The position numbers were made by a program, and so were the translations under genes. Below, in pieces: positions 1 through 23,055 of a stretch of DNA of 26,026 bases. The notes under the pieces were generated by a model. The model did not search any database. It was not told the origin of the DNA and saw only the letters and a program-made list of their open reading frames with translations. The stretch comes from Candidatus Methylomirabilota bacterium (lineage in GTDB: Bacteria; Methylomirabilota; Methylomirabilia; Rokubacteriales; CSP1-6), in contig JBKPAK010000128.1 of NCBI GenBank assembly GCA_046726415.1, forward strand, positions 1-26,026, read 5' to 3'. Numbering within the stretch: the stretch's first letter is position 1; every line of letters begins with the position of its first letter.

Positions 1-56
1 CCCCAGGCTCGTGCGAACCTCGGAGCTAGCTAATGCCGCACCTCGGGGAGGCCTCC

Positions 57-1286
57 ATGTCCGCGAACGTGTCCGACTTCACTTTCCTGCAGGGCGTGAA
101 GATCGTCGATTTCACGCAGTTCGAGGCTGGTCCGTCCTGCACCGAGGCCCTCGCCTGGATGGGTGCCGATGTCGTGAAGATCGAAAACCCTAAAATGGGC
201 GACCCCGGCCGCCGTCTCCGCCCCGGTCAGCCGGACGACGACCCCTACTACTTCCACGCCTTCAACGCCAACAAGCAGTCCATCACGGTCAATCTCAAGT
301 CGCCCAAGGGACTCGAGCTGGTCAAGGGCCTAATCCAGAAGGCCGACGTGATGATCGAGAACTTTGCTCCCGGCGCCATCGAGCGGCTGGGCCTGTCGTA
401 CGACGTCGTGCAGGCTATCAATCCGGGGATCATCTACGCGCAGGTCAAGGGCTTCGGCGAGGGCAGCCCGTTCGAGCAGAACCTGGCCTTCGACATGATC
501 GCTCAGGCCTGCGGCGGCACGTTCAGCGTCACCGGGGACAAGAACGGCCCACCCATCCGGCCCGGCATCTCGATCGGAGATACCGGGACGGGCATGCTGA
601 TGGCCATCACCATCCTGAGCGCCCTGTACAAGCGCCGCGAGACCGGCGAGGGTCATCGCCTGCAAGTGGCCATGCAGGACGCCATGCTGCACTACATGCG
701 GATTAACTTCGCGACCCAGGGTCTGACGGGCAAGGCGGCCGAGCGCGGAGGCAGCAAGGTGCCGGGCGTGACCAACGCGCCGATGGGGCTCTATCCCTGC
801 GCGCCCGGCGGGCCGAACGACTATGTCTACATCATGACCAGCCGAGCGAACCCCGACCACTGGGACCGCCTGCTGAAGCTCATGGGACGGGAGGATCTGA
901 TCGGCGACGAGCGCTATCGCGCCCCGGCCGACCGCGTCGCGCGGGAAGTCGAGGTGGACGAAATCATCTCCACCTGGACCCGCACGCACACCAAGCTCGA
1001 CGCCATGAAGCTGATCGGCGACGCTGGTATTCCGGCCGGCGCAGTGCTCGACACGGACGAGCTCAACAAGGACGTCACGTTCGAGCAGCGAGGGATCATG
1101 CAGACGATGGTCCATCCCGTGCACCGGCCCTTCAAGATGCCGGGCTGGCCCGTGCGTGTTGATGGTCAGCCCACGCGCGTCAAAGCGTCGCCCGTGCTGG
1201 GCGAGCACACGGACCGAGTGTTGAACGAATGGCTCGGCCTGAACGCCCAGGCCGTGGCCACGCTGAAGAGCGAAGGCGTGGTCTGA
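57..1286 (+). CDS. Family III (CaiB/BaiF) CoA-transferase, formyl-CoA transferase-like
   Basis: LQGVKIVDFTQFEAGPSC..LAWMGADVVKIE, FNANKQSITVNLK, IENFAPG, catalytic Asp in ISIGDTGTG, C-terminal PVLGEHT. ATG57 preferred over ATG33 because of a GGGGAG RBS at 45-50. Confidence 0.92.
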   Translation: MSANVSDFTFLQGVKIVDFTQFEAGPSCTEALAWMGADVVKIENPKMGDPGRRLRPGQPDDDPYYFHAFNANKQSITVNLKSPKGLELVKGLIQKADVMIENFAPGAIERLGLSYDVVQAINPGIIYAQVKGFGEGSPFEQNLAFDMIAQACGGTFSVTGDKNGPPIRPGISIGDTGTGMLMAITILSALYKRRETGEGHRLQVAMQDAMLHYMRINFATQGLTGKAAERGGSKVPGVTNAPMGLYPCAPGGPNDYVYIMTSRANPDHWDRLLKLMGREDLIGDERYRAPADRVAREVEVDEIISTWTRTHTKLDAMKLIGDAGIPAGAVLDTDELNKDVTFEQRGIMQTMVHPVHRPFKMPGWPVRVDGQPTRVKASPVLGEHTDRVLNEWLGLNAQAVATLKSEGVV

Positions 1287-1400
1287 TCGGCTGATCCGCG
1301 CACGACACGCGGCACTCGAGCTGCGCGATCCGAGGGCGACAAGGTGAATGGCGCGCTCGCCGCGAGAGCGAGCGCCCGAAGGATTTTTTCCGCAAAGCGT

Positions 1401-1433
1401 CTACCTGCCCTTGAGCTTCACATCCTCGTAGGG
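1401..1433 (-). pseudogene. 3' tail remnant of an ABC substrate-binding protein gene
   Basis: Minus strand reads PYEDVKLKGR*, nearly identical to the PYEDVKLKGK* end of the intact gene at 14823-16361. The shared ACGCT continues past the stop in both. Confidence 0.75.
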
Positions 1434-1485
1434 ACACGCGCGAGCCGGGGGCAGCCGGGGTGCCTGGGTGAGGAGGGAGGAGGAG
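1431..1485. repeat. Dispersed 55-bp repeat, copy 1
   Basis: 49/55 identical, ungapped, to 6915-6969 by manual alignment; core GCAGCCGGGGTGCCTGGGTGAGGAG. Confidence 0.9.
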
Positions 1486-1624
1486 CACCACGAGGAAAGG
1501 CCTCGAGCTCTTCATCGCGCTGTGGCGCTTCGTCGACGGCGGCCTCCTGCCGCCGGGCGCGGTGCTGCGCGCCGCCTGAGCGGCCGCGACGGGTCGCGGC
1601 CGCGGATCACACCAGGAGGAGGCA

Positions 1625-1810
1625 GGGGTTGGTCAACGCGCTCGTTGGGGGGCCGGATCGCCCGCGGCGACCGTTTTCGAGAGGGAGCGCGTTGCCCCCG
1701 CGGTTCCGCCTGCGCCACAGGCGCATAGTGATCGGGTGCCTGACCCAGAGTCAGCACGGATAGAAGGTGGTCGAGCCCTCGCCTCGGCTCTCATGGAACC
1801 GGCCAACCCC
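1625..1810 (+). ncRNA. Putative bridge/seek RNA of the IS110-family remnant
   Basis: Nested helices read from sequence: 1625-1632/1803-1810; 1634-1643/1685-1694 enclosing an internal loop and hairpin 1654-1673; 1702-1707/1795-1800 enclosing hairpins 1708-1722, 1736-1757 and 1773-1790. Lies downstream of the transposase stop. Confidence 0.6.
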
Positions 1811-1867
1811 CCGCTGCCCTCGCCCGCTCACGGCAGCGACTGCGATGCGGACACGGAGCGCGGAGAC

Positions 1868-1873
1868 TTGACA
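1868..1873 (+). promoter_or_regulatory. Outward-facing -35 box (TTGACA) at the IS right end
   Basis: Perfect TTGACA with no -10 at 17-bp spacing in situ. IS1111-like elements complete this promoter at the circle junction. Confidence 0.5.
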
Positions 1874-1920
1874 GGGGGCCCCTCATAGCAGGCCCCCCAT
1901 GTTATTAACCAAGGCGGGAT

Positions 1921-2337
1921 AAGACGGCGGCCGGCCGGCACCTCTCCGTGTGCCATCCGGACAATCCCCAAATCCGCGATGTGACCTTCACCGAGTTCGC
2001 CATGCCCTTCGCCGGCCCGGGCACGGTGAGCCGGAACGCGGTGATCGTCTCCCCAGGCCGCATCGACCGCAGCCCGTGTGGCACCGGGACGTCGGCGCGA
2101 CTGGCGGTGCTGCACGCGCGCGGGCAGCTCGCCCCGGTTCGGGGGTTCATTCACGAATCCATCATCGGCTCGCGCTTCGAGGCGGCCATCGCTGGCCACA
2201 CGACGGTGGGAGGACAGCCGGGTATTGTTCCGACCATCGCCGGCCAGGCGTGGATCACCGGCGTGTTCCAGCACGGCCTCGATCCGTCCGACCCGTTCCG
2301 GAACGGCTACACGCTGCCCGATCTGTGGTTCGCCTGA
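1921..2337 (+). pseudogene. Proline racemase/hydroxyproline epimerase family, C-terminal fragment
   Basis: Contains the signature DRSPCGTGTSA plus ESIIGSRF, IAGQAWITG and DPSDPFRNGY. An in-frame TAA lies at 1906-1908, and the N-terminal half with the first catalytic residue (MCGH-type motif) is absent. Confidence 0.85.
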
Positions 2338-2489
2338 TCCGCCTGCGGCGACCGGGCCAGAGAATCAACGACCCTGGTTGGTGAGATCCGCCGCCCTTAC
2401 CGGGATCGGCGAGCCCGGACTTTCGCTGAAGTTCCCGTCACCCTGTCCCACCGCCTGCGGCTCACCCTCGCAGGTGAGACAATGGCGCG

Positions 2490-3266
2490 ATGCCCTCGGT
2501 CGCGCTTCCCGGCGTGGACCTCTGGTACAAGGACTGCGGCGGCTCCGGTAGGCCGGTGCTCTTCCTGCATGCTGCCTCAGGCACCTGCGACAGCTGGGTG
2601 TACCAGGAACCGGTCTTCACGGCCGCTGGCTATCGCTGCATCGCTTACGACCGGCGCGGATGGGGTCGCTCGCGGCCCGTCCCGACTGGGGAGCAGCCTG
2701 GCTATGCGAGCGACGACCTGCATGGCCTGGTGGATCACTTGGGCCTGGACCGCTTCCACTTGGTGGCGACGGCGGCCGGTGGTATCTGCGGGTTGGACTA
2801 CGCGCTGCTTCACCCGGAACGGGTCCGGAGCCTGGTGGTCGCCAGCAGCATCGGCGGTGTCCAGGACCCGGCGTACCTGGAAGTCCAGCATCGGCTCCGG
2901 CCACCGGAGATTCAGGCTTTGCCCGTCGAGCTGCGCGAACTGGGGCCCTCGTATCGCGGCGTCAACCCTGAAGGCACTCGCCGGTGGATCGACATCGAAC
3001 GGGCCAGCCGCCTGGGGGACGCCCACGGGCCGGGGCAGCCGCTGCGGCACCCGATGACGTTCGCCCGGCTGGAGACCATGCGGATCCCCGTGCTCGTGCT
3101 CGTCGGCGAAGCCGACCTGCTTTCACCGCCCGCGCTGATGCGGCTGCTGGCGGCGCACATTTCCCAGCACCAGTTCGCGTCGGTGCCCGCGGCGGGGCAC
3201 GCCGCCTTCTGGGAGCAGCCGGAGATCTGGAATCGTCTCGTACTTAAATTCATGGGCCTGCACTGA
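2490..3266 (+). CDS. Alpha/beta fold hydrolase-like protein lacking the nucleophile Ser
   Basis: PVLFLHA, YDRRGWGRS, elbow HLVATAAGG, LVGEAD, AGHAAFWEQPE. Confidence 0.88.
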   Translation: MPSVALPGVDLWYKDCGGSGRPVLFLHAASGTCDSWVYQEPVFTAAGYRCIAYDRRGWGRSRPVPTGEQPGYASDDLHGLVDHLGLDRFHLVATAAGGICGLDYALLHPERVRSLVVASSIGGVQDPAYLEVQHRLRPPEIQALPVELRELGPSYRGVNPEGTRRWIDIERASRLGDAHGPGQPLRHPMTFARLETMRIPVLVLVGEADLLSPPALMRLLAAHISQHQFASVPAAGHAAFWEQPEIWNRLVLKFMGLH

Positions 3267-3640
3267 ATCTCGCGCATCTCGAGCATCGAGGGAGTGAACG
3301 TCGCGCGCAACGGTCGGCCCTGGCGTGGCTCGCAGGCCACTCGGGGCCAAGAACCGGCCTCCCCTACGAGTCCGGCGCCGTACGTGCCGGCGCGGTGAGG
3401 CGCCATCATCGCCGATCCGGCCGCGGTTGACGTCGGCGGTGTGTCTCCCATAGCATGCCGCTTGCCCGGGCCAGCTCTTTCGACCCGCGAACGGGCCCAC
3501 CCCATGCGCTGTGCCTGGCACTCCAGCGTACGCGCTGGGGATGCCGTCATGGGGACGGCGGCCAAGCAGCGGGGGTGGAAGGTGTCATGGTGACCAGGCT
3601 CATGCAGATCCTGTAGCCCACCCGGAAAGGGAGACTCGCG

Positions 3641-4513
3641 ATGGCCGTAAGGACACAGACGACGTATGACATCGATGTCGCGGACGTGGAATACCTCCGA
3701 CACGGAGACAAGCCTCTCCTGGCGCGTGTCTTCAAGCCGCGCGGCAGCGGACCGTTCCCGATCATGGTCGAGCTGCATGGCGGAGCCTGGGTCCGGGGGG
3801 ATCGTCAGAACGGGAACGCGGCGAACGAGGCGCTGGCCAAGAACGGTGTGATCGTGGCAGCGCTGGATTTTCGCGTGCCGCCCGCGGCACCGTATCCGGC
3901 TTCTCTGGCCGACATTCACTACGGGATTCGCTGGTGCAAAAGCCAGGCTCAGGCGTGGAGCGGTCGCCCGGACCGGATCGGCGCCATGGGCACGTCCAGT
4001 GGCGCGCACCAGGCCATGCTGCTCGGCATGCGCCCGCGCGATCCACGCTACGCCGCGCTGCCCCTTCCGGCGGGCGCCGCGACGGTGGATGGCACCCTGG
4101 GCTGCGTGATCATGGTCTCTCCCGTGATCGATCCGCTGGGCCGCTATCACTATGCGAAAGGCCTGCGACGGGATTGCACACCGCCCGCGGGGCTGGCCGA
4201 CCGCGTGGTGCCCATGCATGACCAGTACTGGCTGACGGAAGAGGCCATGGCCGAGGGAGCGCCCGCGCGTATCCTGGCCCGTGGCGAGCGGACGGCCACG
4301 CCGCGGGTGTTGTGCGTCGCGCGCAGCTATGAGGAGGCGCACCCTCGCCCGGACCTCGACGAGTTCGTCCGACAGTATCGTCAGGCCGGCGGCCAGATCG
4401 AGGTAACGATCTTCGAGGGCGAGGGTGAAGGTCTGCTGCGCAATCTCTCTTCGTCAGTTGCGCAGCGGGCGCTCGAGCAGATGACCGCGTTCATACATCA
4501 GCACCTCGGGTAA
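3641..4513 (+). CDS. HSL-type alpha/beta hydrolase (esterase-like)
   Basis: HGGAW oxyanion motif, DFRVPPAAPYP, GTSSG nucleophile elbow; GGGAG RBS. Confidence 0.9.
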   Translation: MAVRTQTTYDIDVADVEYLRHGDKPLLARVFKPRGSGPFPIMVELHGGAWVRGDRQNGNAANEALAKNGVIVAALDFRVPPAAPYPASLADIHYGIRWCKSQAQAWSGRPDRIGAMGTSSGAHQAMLLGMRPRDPRYAALPLPAGAATVDGTLGCVIMVSPVIDPLGRYHYAKGLRRDCTPPAGLADRVVPMHDQYWLTEEAMAEGAPARILARGERTATPRVLCVARSYEEAHPRPDLDEFVRQYRQAGGQIEVTIFEGEGEGLLRNLSSSVAQRALEQMTAFIHQHLG

Positions 4514-4811
4514 GCACGGAGTTCTGCCACACGTCCTTCGCGCGCCGTCCACCCTGCTTCAACTTCCCGGGGTGAGCGGCGCCGGGACGCGTGGCGCTCG
4601 TGGGGGCAGCGCTGTCAGACGCGACTCGGGACGGCCGCAGCACGAGCGCGGGTGGCGTGCGCTGCGCTCAATTGGCCTCGTCGGGCGACCGCCGAAGACA
4701 CCGCCCGCCCTCACGAGGGAGCCGGCACCCCGCGGCGCGATCGTCTGACGGTGCGGATGGAGGAGAGCGGCCCTCGATTCCGGTCGACGCCCGGTCCCTG
4801 ATAGGGAGGAC

Positions 4812-5888
4812 ATGACCATGAAATTTGGGCTCATGTACGAAATTCAGATACCGCAACCCCACTATGATGGTATCGAGCACCAGCGCTACAAACAGGTCAT
4901 GGCCCAGGTCGAGCTGGCGGATGAGGTCGGCTTCCAATACTTCTGGACGGTAGAGCACCACTTCCTGCGGGAGTTTTCCCATTGCTCGGCCCCGGAAGTC
5001 CTTTACGGGGCGGTCTCGCAGCGCACCAAGCGGATTCGCATTGGCCACGCCGTCGCCCTGCTGCCGGGCCAGTACAATCACCCCGTGCGGGTGGCCGAAC
5101 GGGCCGCCGTGCTCGATATCGTCAGTGATGGCCGCATGGATCTGGGTACCGGGCGGTCCACCACGCTCATTGAAATGGACGGGTTCCAGGTCGACCCGGA
5201 AGAGACCAGAGCCCAGTGGGAAGAAGCCATCGCCATGATCCCCCGGATGTGGACCCAGGACCCCTTCGCCCACGAGGGGCGCTTTTACCAGATCCCGCCG
5301 CGCTCCGTCATCCCCAAGCCTGTCCAGAAACCCCATCCCCCTCTGTGGGTCGCGTGCAGCCAGCCCGACAGCTTCCGGGCTGCCGGGGAAATGGGTCTGG
5401 GGGCACTCTGTTTCAATCTGGGTGGGTATGCGCAAATGGCCGAGCGGGTCGGTATGTATCGCGAGGGTATCAAGCACGCCAAGCCCGTGGGAAGCTTCAT
5501 CAACGACCAGATCGCGGCGCTGTGCGTCACTCACTGTGCCGATACCGACGAAGAGGCGCACGAATTCGCCGGGCCAGAAGGGGTATGGTTCGTCAAGATG
5601 GCGGAGAAACTCTACGCACCCTGGCAAGGCCGCCACGTGCCCGATTCCTACAAATTCGCCGTCTCGGCCATTCAGCAGGAGCGCACGGGCAAGACCTTCG
5701 AAGACCATATGCAGTCAGGGGCCTTTGCCATGGGCAACCCGGCCAGCGTCATCAAGGTCCTCAAGAAGTACCAGGAGGCCGGGGTGGACCAGATCCTCTG
5801 CTTCATGCAGATGGGCAACCTGGCCCATGCACGGATCATGAGCTCAATCGCCTTGTTTGGCCGTCACGTCATCCCCGCTTTCGCCTAG
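4812..5888 (+). CDS. Luciferase-like (LLM class) flavin-dependent oxidoreductase
   Basis: MKFGL, WTVEHHF, RIRIGHAV, HPVRVAERAAVLDIVSDGRMDLGTGR, PKPVQKPHPPLW; GGGAGG RBS. Confidence 0.93.
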   Translation: MTMKFGLMYEIQIPQPHYDGIEHQRYKQVMAQVELADEVGFQYFWTVEHHFLREFSHCSAPEVLYGAVSQRTKRIRIGHAVALLPGQYNHPVRVAERAAVLDIVSDGRMDLGTGRSTTLIEMDGFQVDPEETRAQWEEAIAMIPRMWTQDPFAHEGRFYQIPPRSVIPKPVQKPHPPLWVACSQPDSFRAAGEMGLGALCFNLGGYAQMAERVGMYREGIKHAKPVGSFINDQIAALCVTHCADTDEEAHEFAGPEGVWFVKMAEKLYAPWQGRHVPDSYKFAVSAIQQERTGKTFEDHMQSGAFAMGNPASVIKVLKKYQEAGVDQILCFMQMGNLAHARIMSSIALFGRHVIPAFA

Positions 5889-6008
5889 AGGGAAGAGCCT
5901 CGGCACGCGCCTGTGATTCCAGTCCGACCGCATGAGGCGTGCGACACCCGTCATGCTGCCGGACCGTGCTACTTCGCAACGTAGCGGGGGAAAGCGCCCC
6001 CGGTGTGA

Positions 6009-6203
6009 ATGGGAGGGAACCCGTGGGAGGGTTGCGGTTCGATCCAGACGACGGACGAGCTGGTCGAGGCCTTGAGCCGGGCCTCCGAGGCTGCGTGGGG
6101 GGCTGAAGCCCTCCCCGACCTGCGCGCGTCTCTGACCACGAGGGCTCAGGCGATCCGGTTGATCAACCAGGAGGCGTTCGCGCCGGGGGATGTCGAGCCA
6201 TGA
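6009..6203 (+). CDS. Small acidic protein coupled to the amidase (possible GatC/AtzG-like partner)
   Basis: 64 aa; its TGA overlaps the amidase ATG (ATGA at 6200-6203); ends ..GDVEP. Start codon uncertain. Confidence 0.5.
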   Translation: MGGNPWEGCGSIQTTDELVEALSRASEAAWGAEALPDLRASLTTRAQAIRLINQEAFAPGDVEP

Positions 6204-6900
6204 GCGTCGCCGCGACGGCGCCCCACGAGCTCACCGCGCGCGAGGCCGCCGCCCTCATCCGGCGCCGGAAGGTCTCGTCCCTGGAGCTGGTCAAGGCGTT
6301 GCTGGCCCGCATCGAGCGAATCGAGCCCACGCTGCGCTCGTTCGTCACGGTCGATGCTGACGGGGCGCGCGCGGCCGCCAAGGCGACCGACGCCGCGCTC
6401 CAGGCCGGACAGAAACTGAGCGTCCTTCACGGCGTCCCGTTCGCGGCCAAGGATATCTATGACGCCGAAGGCCTGCCGACCACGGCCGGCTATCCGACGC
6501 TGTCCGGCAACGTGGCGCGGGCCGATGCGTTCACGGTCGCCCGCATGAAATCCGCGGGCGCGGTGCTCATCGGCAAGACGGTGACGACTCAGTTCGCCGC
6601 GGGCGACCCGTCGCCCACGCGGAATCCATGGCGGGCCGATCGCACGCCGGGCGGATCGAGCAGCGGGTCGGGCGCCGCCGTGGCCGCTCGGCTCGTGCCC
6701 ATCGCGCTCGGCACGCAGACGGGTGGGTCGCTCCTGCGCCCCGCTGCCTACAATGGCGTGGTCGGGCTCAAGCCCACGTACGGCCGCGTCAGCCGGCGCG
6801 GGATCGTCCCGCTCTCGTGGACGCTCGACCACGCGGGCCCTCTGGTGCGCAGGGTGCGGCAGAGGACGGAGCCCTCCGGCTGGCGGCGCTGATAGGTCGG
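6200..6900 (+). pseudogene. Amidase signature family protein, 3'-truncated and frameshifted
   Basis: LHGVPFAAKD, TPGGSSSGS, GTQTGGSLLRPAAYNG, LDHAGPL. The expected continuation (EDGALRLAALIG) is in another frame after about 6857 and homology ends near 6900, about half the usual length. Confidence 0.85.
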
Positions 6901-6914
6901 CAGGGCACAGAGCA

Positions 6915-6969
6915 GGGGCACGCGCACGCCGGGTGCAGCCGGGGTGCCTGGGTGAGGAGCGACGAGGAG
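6915..6969. repeat. Dispersed 55-bp repeat, copy 2
   Basis: 49/55 identical to 1431-1485, same orientation. Confidence 0.9.
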
Positions 6970-7186
6970 ACAAGGACCTCACACGCATCATCCTGGAACT
7001 TGACCGCGTGGCTCTGCCCACCGCAGTGGGCAGGGCGCCTGGCTGGCTGAAGAGACGAGGGGTTCGCGACAACACGGTCTCCCCTGGGATGCGGTCTGAG
7101 CGCGCCGGGCCAGAGTCGGACTGGCGGTTCGGGTTCCGCAGCCGGCCTGCACCGGTCTCCCCTCGATCGGTCTGCGTCCCGCCTCT

Positions 7187-7216
7187 TTGACTTGAGACAC
7201 CCAGAACACCTACAAC
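7187..7216 (+). promoter_or_regulatory. Possible sigma70 promoter of the CoA-transferase operon
   Basis: TTGACT-N18-TACAAC about 115 bp upstream of ATG7331. Confidence 0.3.
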
Positions 7217-7330
7217 TGGCTGGTGGCCGTTACGCCGGGTGGAACGCGGGGGGCAAGCCCACGGCGGAGGTCATGGGCCGCGGCAAGTCAAGGGGGATCC
7301 CGAAGGACCCATCGTGAGGGGGAGGCGACG

Positions 7331-8569
7331 ATGAGTGGTGTGTACGACGGCCTCACCGTGGTCGAGCTGGCCGATCGCCGCAACCAGTGGGCTGGCAAGC
7401 TTCTGGCCGACGGCGGCGCGCGGGTGATCCAGATCGAGCCGCCCGGTGGCAGTCCGGGACGATGGTGCGGCCCCTTCGTCGACGACGCGGTCGATTCCGA
7501 CCGCTGCCTCGACTACTGGTGGTACAACACCGGCAAGCAGAGCGTCGCCCTCGACATCGGCCGCCAGCCGGCCCAGGACCTTCTCCGGCAACTGCTAGCC
7601 AGGGCGGACATCTTCCTCGAAAGCACGCCGCCGGGAACGCTGCGTCCGTACGGCCTCGACTACGGGTCCGTCTCGAGCCACCGTGCGCTCATCTACGCGT
7701 CGCTGACCGACTTCGGTCAGGACGGCCCGTGGCGCGATTACCAGATGAACGACGCCGCGCACCTGGCCCTGGGCGGCCACATGGCGAGCACCGGATATTC
7801 CGACCCGAGCCTCACACCGATCGGCGGGCAGGGTCACCAGGCGTGGCACATGGGCTGCGTCTTCGCACTCCACGGGATCACGCTCGCTCTCTTCGACCGC
7901 ATGACGAGCGGACAAGGCCAGCACATCGACGTGGCGATCCACGACGCCTGCGCGATCGGCACCGAGGCGGCGGTGCCCGAGTGGCTGTACAACGGCGCGA
8001 CGCTCTACCGGCAGACCGGCATGCACGCCTCGACGCGGCGGCAACCTGACCTCGAGCTGCCCACGGCAGACGGCATGTACGTGATCGCAGTGAACCAGAC
8101 CTTTGGCGACCAGGGCTGGGCGAAGCTGATCGAGTGGATGGAGGAGAAGGGCGTTGCCGGCGAGCTGACCGACCCGAAGTACCGCGACGAAGCCGTCCGC
8201 ATGACCGACTATCGCCAGGGGACGGCCGTCCGCGACGGGATCCGCCGATTGATCGCCGCCACCAAGGGCGAGGAGGTTTTCGCCCGCGCGCAGGCGTACG
8301 GCATCTCGTGGGGGCTCGTCCGCGCACCGGAGGAGAACTACGATGTCCCGCATTACCAGCAGCGCGCCTTCTGGCGTGCCGTCGAGCACCCGGAGATCGG
8401 CCGGGCCGTTCCCTACCCGCGCGGCCCGTTCATGTCGGAGGCGCTCGGGATCACCCCACGGGGGCGAGCACCGCATCTGGGCGAGCACACGCGGCAGGTT
8501 CTGGAAACCGATCTTGGTCTGCCCGCCGCTCAAATCGATGCGCTCGCCGCGGCCGGAGTCATTCGATGA
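7331..8569 (+). CDS. Family III CoA-transferase, BbsE-like subunit lacking the catalytic Asp
   Basis: GLTVVELAD..AGKLLADGGARVIQIEPP, YNTGKQSVALD, RAPHLGEHT; GHQAWHMG at the catalytic Asp position; GGAGG RBS before ATG7331. Confidence 0.9.
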   Translation: MSGVYDGLTVVELADRRNQWAGKLLADGGARVIQIEPPGGSPGRWCGPFVDDAVDSDRCLDYWWYNTGKQSVALDIGRQPAQDLLRQLLARADIFLESTPPGTLRPYGLDYGSVSSHRALIYASLTDFGQDGPWRDYQMNDAAHLALGGHMASTGYSDPSLTPIGGQGHQAWHMGCVFALHGITLALFDRMTSGQGQHIDVAIHDACAIGTEAAVPEWLYNGATLYRQTGMHASTRRQPDLELPTADGMYVIAVNQTFGDQGWAKLIEWMEEKGVAGELTDPKYRDEAVRMTDYRQGTAVRDGIRRLIAATKGEEVFARAQAYGISWGLVRAPEENYDVPHYQQRAFWRAVEHPEIGRAVPYPRGPFMSEALGITPRGRAPHLGEHTRQVLETDLGLPAAQIDALAAAGVIR

Positions 8570-14612: not shown

Positions 14613-14691
14613 GCGCGAGCGGTCGCGACGGGAGCCCCGCGTGGGCGGGGGCGTCTCCTCGGTCCGGTGCCGATTGGGGGCGATCGATGGG

Positions 14692-14720
14692 TTGATCTGA
14701 GTCGAAGGCGACGCTACCCT
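14692..14720 (+). promoter_or_regulatory. Possible sigma70 promoter of the substrate-binding protein gene
   Basis: TTGATC-N17-TACCCT. Confidence 0.4.
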
Positions 14721-14822
14721 CTCCGCACGAGCCCACCCTCCGCCACGGAGGTGGCCGTCATGCGGTTCCGGCCATCCGCGTCGCACACCACGTCCGGCGC
14801 AAAGGGCAATAAGGAGGCTTCC

Positions 14823-16361
14823 ATGATGAGACAGGTTCGAGGCCTCTTCGTGTCGTTGCTCGTCATCACGCTCGTGACGCTTGGTCCGTCGCTGTGCGCA
14901 GCGGCCCCCGAAGGTCAGATGATCTGGGGGGCCCACATCTCGCTCGCGCCCACCTGGTTCGACCCGGCCGAGACCTCGGGGATCATCACGCCGTTCATGG
15001 TGATTTACGCGTTGCACGACGCCGTGCTGAAGCCGATGCCGGGTCAGCCCCTGGCGCCAAGCCTCGCCGAGTCGTGGAGCATGTCCCCCGATGGTCTCGC
15101 CTACGACTTCGCCCTCCGCAAAGGGGTCAAGTTCCACAACGGTGAGACGGTCACCGCCGAGGACGTGAAGTTCTCCCTCGAGCGCTACCGGGGCGCCTCC
15201 GCCAAGGCTCTCCGGGAGAATGTCGCGGCGGTGGAGACCCCGGACCCCGGGCGCGTCCGCATCCGCCTCAAGCGACCGTGGCCCGACTTCATGACCTTCT
15301 ATATCGGCGCGACCGGTGCCGCCTGGATCGTCCCGAAGAAGTACGTCGAGAAGGTCGGCGACGAAGGCTTCAAGAAGGCGCCGGTCGGGGCCGGCCCGTA
15401 CAGATTTATCTCGTACACCCCGGGGGTGGAGCTGGTCCTGGAGGCCTTCGATCAGTACTGGAGGAAGGTGCCGAACGTCAAGCGGGTGATCCTGAGATCG
15501 ATCCCCGACGAGACCACGCGCCTGGCCGCGCTGAAGCGAGGCGAGATCGACATCGCTTATAACCTTCGGGGCGAGCTGGCCCAGGAGATCCGGCGCACGC
15601 CGGGGCTCACCCTCAAGCCCAACGTCGGCCAGGCCACGCACTGGGTCTACTTCGCCGACCAGTGGGATCCGAAATCGCCATGGCACGACCGGCGCGTGCG
15701 CCTGGCGGCGAACTACGCCATCGATCGGCCCGCGATGAACGAGGCGGACGCTCTCGGATTCGCCAAGATCACCTGGAGTATCATTCCCTCGAGCTTCGAG
15801 TTCTACTGGCAGCCGCCCGGCTATGCGTATGATCGGGCCCGCGCCAAGCAACTCCTCGCCGAGGCCGGGTACCCCAACGGCTTCGACGCCGGCGACTACT
15901 TTTGCGACGCCGCGATCACCAATATCGGCGAGCCCGCCGTCAACTATCTGAACGCGGCGGGCATCCGGGTGAAGCTCCGTCCGGTGGAGCGCGCCGCCTA
16001 CTTCAAAGGATGGTCCGAGAGGAAGTACAAGGGGCTCATCCACGGCGCCAGCGGTGCCTTCGGCAACGCCGCCACCAGACTCGAGGCCTTCATCGTCGGG
16101 GGCGGCACCTACGCCTACGGCAGCTACGCCGACATCGATGGCCTCTTCGCGGAGCAGGCCGGCGAGCTCGACCCGAAGCGGCGCGAGGCGACCCTGCACC
16201 GCATCCAGCAGCTCGTCCACGAGAGGGTGATGGTCGCGCCGATCTGGCTGAACGCTGGCCTGTCCGGTCTGGGGCCACGCGTCGAGGAGTCGGGAATCGG
16301 GCTCATCGCCGGGTTCGCCTGGTCCGGCCCGTACGAGGACGTGAAGCTCAAGGGCAAGTAG
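14823..16361 (+). CDS. ABC transporter substrate-binding protein, family 5 (DppA/OppA-like), orphan
   Basis: Signal peptide, PSLAESW, LRKGVKFHNG..VTAEDVKFS, PVGAGPY, D.RVR.A.NYAIDR, AKQLLAEAGYPNGF; AAGGAGG RBS. Confidence 0.95.
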   Translation: MMRQVRGLFVSLLVITLVTLGPSLCAAAPEGQMIWGAHISLAPTWFDPAETSGIITPFMVIYALHDAVLKPMPGQPLAPSLAESWSMSPDGLAYDFALRKGVKFHNGETVTAEDVKFSLERYRGASAKALRENVAAVETPDPGRVRIRLKRPWPDFMTFYIGATGAAWIVPKKYVEKVGDEGFKKAPVGAGPYRFISYTPGVELVLEAFDQYWRKVPNVKRVILRSIPDETTRLAALKRGEIDIAYNLRGELAQEIRRTPGLTLKPNVGQATHWVYFADQWDPKSPWHDRRVRLAANYAIDRPAMNEADALGFAKITWSIIPSSFEFYWQPPGYAYDRARAKQLLAEAGYPNGFDAGDYFCDAAITNIGEPAVNYLNAAGIRVKLRPVERAAYFKGWSERKYKGLIHGASGAFGNAATRLEAFIVGGGTYAYGSYADIDGLFAEQAGELDPKRREATLHRIQQLVHERVMVAPIWLNAGLSGLGPRVEESGIGLIAGFAWSGPYEDVKLKGK

Positions 16362-16409
16362 ACGCTCGGCGGGAGGACCGCCGGACGGCGGTGTGGGTGA
16401 CCGCCTGGG

Positions 16410-22845: not shown

Positions 22846-23055
22846 GGCGCACCTCCATTGAGCTTTACACTGCCCTCCTTCGCTACCAACCGTGGCAGAC
22901 CGGCAGCCGCTCAGGCAGATAGGCTGGCGGTGGCCGATGTCATCGAGGCATTTGCCTTCGTCAGCGCGGAATCACCGCGCCCACCCTCGTGTATCCGAAT
23001 GCGCTGCCCGAGGCCGCGCCGGAGACCATCGTCCACCGCTTGGTCCCGGCTGCGC

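Follow-up and report, generated by a model that had tools for sequence, protein, structure and literature searches.

A probable 3' stump of an IS110-family insertion sequence that retains a predicted guide RNA gene and the right end

Features of the locus

The window (the whole stretch of DNA that was analysed, 26,026 nt) contains, downstream of a CoA-transferase gene, the end of a transposase gene, which is followed by a hairpin, a candidate guide RNA gene and the right end of an insertion sequence (IS). We assigned the following features:

1505..1579, +: last 24 codons and stop codon, remnant of an IS110-family transposase (blastn and tblastn homology)
1580..1603, +: perfect 10-bp GC hairpin with a 4-nt loop, directly 3' of the stop codon (-22.3 kcal/mol)
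1625..1810, +: predicted guide (bridge/seek) RNA gene of ~186 nt, closed by the outer helix P0 (match to covariance model R3; P0 duplex energy)
1634..1694, +: arm 1 with the putative target-binding loop; stem 1634-1643/1685-1694, inner hairpin 1655-1672, all pairs canonical
1646-1654, +: 5' loop strand of arm 1, TGGGGGGCC, putative right-target guide (reverse complement of 1891-1899)
1674-1682, +: 3' loop strand of arm 1, TTTTCG-AG-A, putative left-target guide plus core (by a rule read by eye from relatives)
1701..1801, +: arm 2 with the putative donor-binding multiloop; stem 1701-1707/1795-1801, hairpins 1711-1725, 1736-1757 and 1773-1790
1760-1767, +: single strand of arm 2, ATAGAAGG, putative left-donor guide plus core (matches the right-end junction at 7/8 positions)
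1868..1891, +: right end of the element; TTGACA 1868-1873, repeat arm CCCCTCAT 1879-1886, AGC 1887-1889, core AG 1890-1891
1891..1899, +: right half of the putative cognate target site, GGCCCCCCA, outside the element (complement of 1646-1654)

The reading frame that closes at TGA 1577-1579 reads ...LELFIALWRFVDGGLLPPGAVLRAA (also given as ...GLELFIALWRFVDGGLLPPGAVLRAA). When 1400-1950 was compared to plasmids with blastn, the match was confined to 1514-1579, which corresponds at 78.8% identity to the final 66 nt of two annotated plasmid IS110 transposase genes. One of these is Swit_5197 on pSWIT01 (locus L001), and its product has the C-terminus ...ARKLLIALWRFVETGLVPQGAELRAV*. With tblastn, the tail aligned to the transposases of L001, L002, L003 and L093 over 21-24 aa (58-70% identity, E 4e-5 to 1e-3), and the alignments with L005, L014 and L109 run on to 37-43 aa (49-54% identity). 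The initial annotation had described 24 codons of a transposase-like tail at this position, and we find them there, with matches to IS110 transposases in both searches.

Nothing else of the transposase was detected. A tblastn search of the whole 26-kb window with the transposases of 20 relatives gave nothing credible beyond the tail and no other IS110 transposase homology, and a DNA profile that covers the transposase gene over the 150 nt before the tail motif had no match upstream of ~1505. Pfam detected no domain in the 24-codon remnant, which lies beyond the positions covered by PF01548 and PF02371. The earlier statement that nearly all of the transposase is gone is borne out by these searches. 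An extension of the remnant to ~1430-1454, suggested by tblastn alignments that ran through an in-frame stop, was rejected, as the DNA profile of the preceding 150 nt was empty there.

The hairpin at 1580-1603, which had also been noted before, is more stable than expected (z -3.66), with none of 200 shuffled sequences being equally stable. Its stem lacks a downstream U-run and a terminator scan finds 0 sites, which rules it out as an intrinsic terminator. In the predicted fold of at least two relatives from subfamily A (L059 and L014), a stem-loop likewise separates the stop codon from the RNA.

Relative to the stop codon, the predicted RNA gene starts 46 nt and the right end lies 312 nt in the 3' direction. 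This is the placement of IS1111-type elements, and the relatives have the same arrangement. The segment of ~186 nt has complementary ends, as proposed: GGGGTTGG at 1625-1632 pairs with CCAACCCC at 1803-1810 to form P0. It had further been proposed that the segment encloses two arms, each with a helix, a loop and an inner hairpin. Arm 1 has this form, whereas arm 2 is a multiloop with three hairpins.

When the window was threaded by hand onto the family structure, 51 of 51 pairs were canonical, which agrees with the proposal that the helices are still intact; this threading was derived from the window sequence itself. In the automatic alignment of the window, 33 of the 42 scorable positions are paired and 8 are gapped. 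The homology structure has an energy of -79.5 kcal/mol and lies 13.9 kcal/mol above the minimum free energy (MFE) fold (-93.4 kcal/mol). The z-scores of the MFE are at chance level on the plus strand (-0.09 for 1575-1900, -0.95 for 1621-1815). By our own estimate, one 8-bp inverted repeat in about 400 GC-rich bases is close to the chance expectation. Rfam 15 gave 0 matches in the window at the gathering threshold and chance-level matches for 1300-2000 at E up to 10. The support above chance comes from homology: the match of the tail, the best covariance-model match, the covariation in the family and the matches between guides and flanks. As a separate observation, the minus strand of 1575-1900 folds better than shuffled sequences (z -2.99, 1/100), whereas the sense strand does not.

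At the right end, TTGACA is a -35-like hexamer, CTCAT lies at 1882-1886 and CTCATAGCAG spans 1882-1891. The motifs of the previously described TTGACA...CATAG terminus are present, and the position of the terminus itself depends on how it is defined: the element ends at 1889 or 1891, according to the side to which the common AG (1890-1891) is assigned. The layout TTGAC, ~10-12 nt, CxCAT, NNN, AG is also found in 9 relatives. In subfamily A, left ends begin with AGATGCTATGGGGCG and right ends close with CGCCCCAT-NNN, followed by AG; the sub-terminal repeat measures 6-9 bp by eye, with extensions of 7 nt on the left and 3 nt on the right and an AG core. The window has the corresponding right side (CCCCTCAT, AGC and the core AG), and the comparison of repeat and extension is one-sided, since the left partner is absent.

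We searched for the missing parts of the element in several ways. An nhmmer profile of the left end, built from one other subfamily only, had no match upstream of the stump, and a search of the window for inverted-repeat partners of the right end with up to 2 mismatches was negative. Neither a sigma-70-like promoter nor a terminator was predicted in 1200-2000. A GC hairpin at 1350-1377, 3' of the CoA-transferase gene, has a run of six U 7 nt behind it (1350-1390 in total); it looks like the terminator of this upstream gene, although the consensus scan flagged none.

Relatives in other genomes and covariation of the RNA

Relatives were collected by scanning genome contigs with a degenerate 20-mer for I-A-L-W-R-F-V, which yielded at least 119 loci and, together with the plasmid locus L001, 120. 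For 39 of the 119, the sequence comprised flanks of 300 nt only. Burkholderiaceae loci that contain the 20-mer word in an unrelated frame were left out. The tail type IALWRFV..G..P.G/S together with a non-coding region of the same build was found in 29 of the 120 loci among the matches listed. From the tail-type loci among the matches listed, 19 were tested with five full-length transposase queries, and transposase homology was present in all of them. The gene is full-length in a single frame in 10 loci, near full-length in one, frameshifted in three (L003, L016 and L021) and 5'-truncated with the downstream non-coding region kept in four (L008, L017, L066 and L057, the last with 47 residues remaining); one locus was left unclassified because its contig ends.

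The transposases of the relatives comprise 379-393 aa. The proteins of L001 and L059 pass the NCBIfam model NF033542 'IS110 family RNA-guided transposase' (196.9 and 170.1 bits; cut-off 140) and both match Pfam PF02371 (Transposase_20) above the cut-off. For PF01548 (DEDD_Tnp_IS110), L001 scores above the cut-off (30.3 vs 29) and L059 just below it (27.0 vs 29). A DEDD/RuvC-like recombinase with a Transposase_20 domain is thus found in these relatives and not in the window, where the surviving coding piece is homologous to IS110-family transposases. The initial annotation had suggested to check whether homologues of 1625-1810 lie downstream of IS110 transposases and whether the helices covary. 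The first is the case, as judged by Pfam and NCBIfam for two relatives and by homology for the 19 loci.

The DNA downstream of the L001 transposase carries the landmarks of the window, with a GGGTTGGT start and a TTGACA...CCTCATACAAG end. L001 and L082 contain the same IS, and their sequences diverge directly after ...CATACAAG. The non-coding regions of the window and of the relatives show very little identity; with blastn, the best match covers 23 nt and was obtained with L083. In Rfam, nine relatives' loci match group II intron families alone, and no family was found for their non-coding regions. Taken together, the relatives appear to form a clade without Rfam 15 match in which the core is AG, arm 1 holds the target loop and the donor guides lie in the multiloop. 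By its sequence features, the stump RNA is a further member of the known IS1111-type bridge/seek RNAs. The clade may already be included in the supplementary lists of predicted bridge/seek RNAs (Durrant 2024, Siddiquee 2024).

Covariance models were built stepwise, and the window was kept out of every training set. Model R1 was built from 7 alignable close relatives (alignment A3), R2 from 12 R1 matches among the matches listed for 21 searched loci, and R3 from 15 R2 matches among the matches listed for 84 searched loci, after duplicates had been dropped. L052 was left out of R3 because of its reverse-strand match. In alignment A6 (15 sequences), 89.6% of the cells are paired, compared to 69.3% after shuffling and 36-42% with slid partners. 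Double changes occur in 38 of the 50 pairs, and none of 500 shuffles reaches the observed values. These pair counts are inflated, as the alignments A5-A7 were fitted to the model.

The outer closing helix P0 is absent from the models and was tested apart, by comparing the duplex energy of cognate and non-cognate flanks in 15 rows (L093, whose 3' flank is cut, was dropped). Across the family, own flanks have a mean of -14.4 kcal/mol, compared to -9.7 +/- 3.7 kcal/mol for mismatched partners, and 0 of 20000 permutations were as good. The P0 of the window is the strongest, with -22.6 kcal/mol vs -9.3 +/- 3.6 kcal/mol for non-cognate flanks. The expected covariation of the helices is therefore found both in A6, with its fit to the structure, and in the permutation test of P0.

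The region in the window is recovered by R2 and R3 under permissive settings. The R1 search gave no match at the site, and R2 with default filters had 0 matches in the window; R2 and R3 recover the region with the filters turned off only. In this mode, 1631-1806 on the plus strand ranks first for R2 in positions 1-8000 (8.6 bits, E 0.026). It also ranks first for R3 on both strands of the 26 kb (15.4 bits, E 0.011, with E-values being rough), and the runner-up has 9.1 bits and E 0.32. The top R3 match thus falls on the expected strand, 52 nt past the transposase stop, within a search space of ~52 kb. A further candidate, 36 nt at 22963-22998 on the minus strand, resembles the arm-2 guide and the next hairpin; it matched R1 with E 0.18, was not reproduced by R3 and is probably due to chance. 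This stretch is intergenic and lies upstream of an amidohydrolase gene.

Some relatives have notable surroundings. In L059, Rfam group II intron domains (1471-1606 and 3627-3728) lie on either side of the IS on the opposite strand, and L002 has group II intron pieces near the IS (2548-2831). L059 and L014 come from different assemblies and have an identical right flank. At least one subgroup is thus located within group II introns, and the subgroup with L059 and L014 may target such introns, judging from these flanks. In L014, a partial arm 2 of another copy (768-858 in locus coordinates) abuts the left end of the element, and the left junction falls within the guide-coding word ATGCAAG. This suggests that the L014 element inserted into the guide DNA of a sister copy.

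Guide sequences and the target site

IS110-family elements encode an RNA that binds the DEDD recombinase, as described by Durrant 2024 (PMC11208160) and Siddiquee 2024 (PMC11187229). According to the description in Durrant 2024 (PMC11208160), the IS1111-type RNA lies in the right end, has its donor-binding nucleotides in a multiloop and includes the core within its pairings. Siddiquee 2024 (PMC11187229) describes that the top strand is bound by the first target match of IS1111 elements and the bottom strand by the second. We compared the loops of the predicted RNA to the flank and to the end of the element.

In arm 1, the 5' loop strand (1646-1654) and the flank at 1891-1899 are reverse complements at 9/9 positions; this 9-mer has 3 occurrences on both strands of the window. 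The same register of the right-target guide is found in L021 (9/9) and L014 (8/9). Over 11 rows, cognate right-target guides have a mean score of 6.9/9, compared to 5.2 +/- 1.0 for 110 non-cognate pairs, and scores of at least 8 were reached by 3 of the 11 cognate and 3 of the 110 non-cognate pairs.

The donor guide is the strand that follows hairpin P2b and repeats the right-end junction (AT NNN AG G). Among 16 rows, the junction was found in 12, and the locus was too short in the other 4. The repeat is exact in 8 rows; L001, L016 and the window each deviate from it at one position and L057 at two. In the window, the donor guide faces ATAGCAGG in the right end at 1885-1892.

For the left-target guide, the rule that we read by eye is that the 3' loop strand of arm 1 repeats the left flank, AG and the first base of the element. 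This rule holds for L059 (9 nt), L052 (8 nt) and L038 (8 nt); it fails in L014, where the left end abuts the fragment of another copy's arm 2. In the window, 1674-1682 predicts the left junction TTTTCG-AG-A. The left flank itself is missing, and the predicted junction occurs nowhere else in the window. The order of the target matches is that of IS1111 elements: 1646-1654 precedes 1674-1682, and the latter has the same sequence as the predicted left flank on its top strand. The loops of the RNA are hence complementary to the target flank (9/9) and to the element's own end (7/8), with AG as the common core.

From these matches, the predicted target of the guide would be TTTTCG-AG-GCCCCCCA, and arm 1 would pair with both target strands. 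Arm 2 would pair with the joined ends of the excised circle, for which TTGACA in the right end would provide the -35 of a junction promoter. The orphaned IS110/IS1111-type guide RNA that the initial annotation had postulated is thus corroborated by its position, which is that of the relatives, by covariation, by the R3 match and by the pairing between guides and flanks.

Origin and state of the stump, and comparison with known systems

We consider it highly probable that 1505-1891 is the ~387-bp 3' stump of an IS110-family IS with an IS1111-type layout, most likely a dead relic in which guide RNA and right end are kept. A deletion or rearrangement with a breakpoint at ~1486-1512 would have taken the left end, the left flank and ~360 of the ~385 transposase codons (~94%). 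What would remain is a piece of 24 codons and the hairpin, together with the guide RNA gene in full and a right end that still borders the right half of the original target. As the right-target guide matches the flank at the right end, the right junction is an authentic insertion junction, and the left junction is gone. Since the right junction is original, the deletion would have been located to the left of the RNA.

With the left end missing, formation of the junction promoter and excision of the stump are both impossible. We infer that this copy would be neither excised nor mobilised, even with help in trans, as the recombinase, the left end and a predicted promoter are all missing. The stump is most likely a silent relic, whose RNA-coding part appears undecayed except for the one mismatch between donor guide and right end. 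A recent deletion is plausible because all 51 pairs are intact by hand threading, and the intact helices suggest that little time would have passed since the deletion. Because 4 of the 19 tested loci are similar stumps, we rate the stump as an ordinary IS relic.

A different possibility is that the RNA is expressed and acts in trans with a cognate transposase from full-length copies at other genomic sites; it might then contribute or preserve a target specificity, or sequester the transposase as a decoy. In favour of this, neither the helices nor the right-target guide are disrupted, and bridge/seek RNAs work when supplied in trans, as reported in the descriptions by Durrant 2024 (PMC11208160) and Siddiquee 2024 (PMC11187229); the latter source also describes that a seekRNA is able to serve diverged transposases. 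However, no promoter was predicted, a terminator-like hairpin with a U-run (by our reading) follows the upstream gene, and the junction promoter is impossible without the left end. Furthermore, any full copy would supply its own RNA, the donor guide mismatches its own right end as in the decayed relatives L016 and L057, and 5'-truncated copies recur among the relatives as plain decay. We thus regard such a functional guide as improbable. It is slightly less probable still that the stump has been retained because its RNA is used, as a stand-alone guide locus that would be expressed by read-through or from an unrecognised promoter and would load onto the recombinase of related full-length copies at other sites of the genome. 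If this were true, the RNA would steer the recombinase to TTTTCG-AG-GCCCCCCA sites or damp it as a decoy, and the stump would be a guide-only locus that occurs naturally, a counterpart of orphan CRISPR arrays among RNA-guided recombinases. A search of literature titles and abstracts on IS110 bridge RNA with orphan or non-autonomous returned none about stand-alone guide loci.

The stump could also be a complete non-autonomous mini-element, in which an internal deletion fused the left end to the transposase tail and which would be mobilisable in trans. For this, one could cite that a 56-nt stretch (1430-1485) recurs at 6914-6969 with 89% identity and that 1430-1485 holds, by eye, motifs faintly like the left ends of subfamily A. 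Yet the left-end profile is empty at both repeats (nearest hit 6958-6970, E 13; a profile from one other subfamily and so of limited weight), the right end has no inverted-repeat partner and the predicted left junction TTTTCGAGA is found solely in the guide itself. Beyond the 56 nt, the two loci score 53.5, compared to 48.4 +/- 7.1 for shuffled and 55.3 +/- 9.4 for real-sequence controls, which is noise. The searches thus give no sign of a second element end, and the earlier suggestion of a non-autonomous element finds no support in the profile, inverted-repeat and junction searches; we consider it highly improbable. Finally, the region might not contain an RNA gene at all and instead represent a GC-rich fold that arose by chance, a regulatory RNA of another kind or coding sequence. 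The insignificant z-scores of the MFE and the missing Rfam match would fit this, as would several overlapping GC-type ORFs (e.g. 1344-1763). These ORFs, however, belong to no Pfam family, and the site directly after the transposase tail, the model match, the complementarity between guides and flank and the covariation in the family all argue for an RNA gene, which makes its absence extremely improbable.

The relic that we favour can be compared to several known systems. Like the IS1111-group seekRNAs of ISEc11, ISPa11 and ISKpn4 as described in PMC11187229, the stump has its RNA in the right end, with the top-strand complement first. IS1111 elements have sub-terminal inverted repeats with extensions of 7 nt on the left and 3 nt on the right; of these, the stump has at its right end a repeat arm with a 3-nt extension, next to a -35 hexamer, and it also has in common with this group a core dinucleotide at the junctions. 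This likeness to ISEc11, ISPa11 and ISKpn4 concerns the layout and is a comparison by description. Unlike IS1111 elements, the stump is without recombinase gene and left end. The transposases of the relatives (379-393 aa) differ in size from the 330-350 aa given for IS1111 transposases (Siddiquee 2024, PMC11187229), and their sub-terminal repeats of 6-9 bp by eye are short compared to the 11-13 bp (Siddiquee, PMC11187229) or 7-17 bp (Durrant, PMC11208160) described. Because of the protein length and the short repeats, we withhold strict IS1111-group membership: the stump appears to be derived from, and its parent to have worked like, an IS1111-type element, and the assignment to the group is left at the level of layout. 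Without a recombinase, the stump is best described as a derivative of an IS110-family member, not as a functional one.

The bridge RNA of IS621 from the IS110 group (PMC11208160) is similarly divided into two parts, of which one has the target-binding loop and the other binds the donor. Both its left and its right guide extend to the core dinucleotide, and it works in trans experimentally, as that paper describes (PMC11208160). It differs in that the left end harbours the RNA, 5' of the gene, and both loops are simple internal loops (PMC11208160), and in that its core is CT, in contrast to AG here, and the guide order is reversed (PMC11208160). Another comparison is the small-RNA gene ssr9 of ISPpu9 in Pseudomonas putida KT2440, which is described as normally located 3' of an IS110-family transposase and also occurring solo in the chromosome (PMC12288879), with an AG dinucleotide at the ends (PMC12288879). 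Solo ssr9, however, has boxes of its own at its boundaries, circularises separately and is dispensable for transposition, which makes it a separate mobile module (Pares-Guillen et al. 2025, PMC12288879). The stump RNA would instead be the guide itself, and the stump has one end only and looks like a deletion product. From ordinary truncated IS copies, in which one end and a gene fragment are left, the stump does not differ in kind; its sole special point among IS remnants is that the surviving piece is a guide-RNA gene with all helices intact.

The stump leaves the known mechanism unchanged, and would gain greater weight only if the RNA were expressed and used in trans. It suggests that sequence alone suffices to recognise and decode guide RNA genes of the IS110/IS1111 type, even after the recombinase gene has been lost, and that such stumps should be annotated as IS remnants instead of empty intergenic DNA.

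The neighbourhood of the stump includes several broken genes. A gene of the proline-racemase family at 1909-2337 retains the C-terminal 40% only (Pfam profile positions 196-325 of 325) and begins ~20-30 nt past the right end of the stump. On the other side, an isolated 44-nt fragment (1390-1433, minus strand) has 89% identity to 16329-16372 and comprises the last 11 codons, the stop codon and 11 nt beyond from a paralogue of the SBP_bac_5 gene at 14667-16361. An amidase ORF at 6200-6892 is truncated as well (profile positions 1-197 of 445). A deletion to the left of the RNA would help to explain the proline-racemase fragment, the tail of the solute-binding protein and the truncated amidase 5 kb away, and the locus appears to have gone through several rearrangements.

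The 56-nt direct repeat mentioned above lies just upstream of the stump, and its second copy is located between the truncated amidase ORF and a CoA-transferase gene. The repeat is unexplained by the left-end and transposase-gene profiles, and homology stops at its limits; an apparent homology of 1486-1900 with 6970-7240 is at noise level and was dismissed. The region 6893-7222 might be a second, far more decayed non-coding relic of IS110 type, with weak model matches at 7047-7177 (E 0.03-0.4) and a ...CTCCCCTCGATCG motif that resembles the 3' ends of subfamily A.
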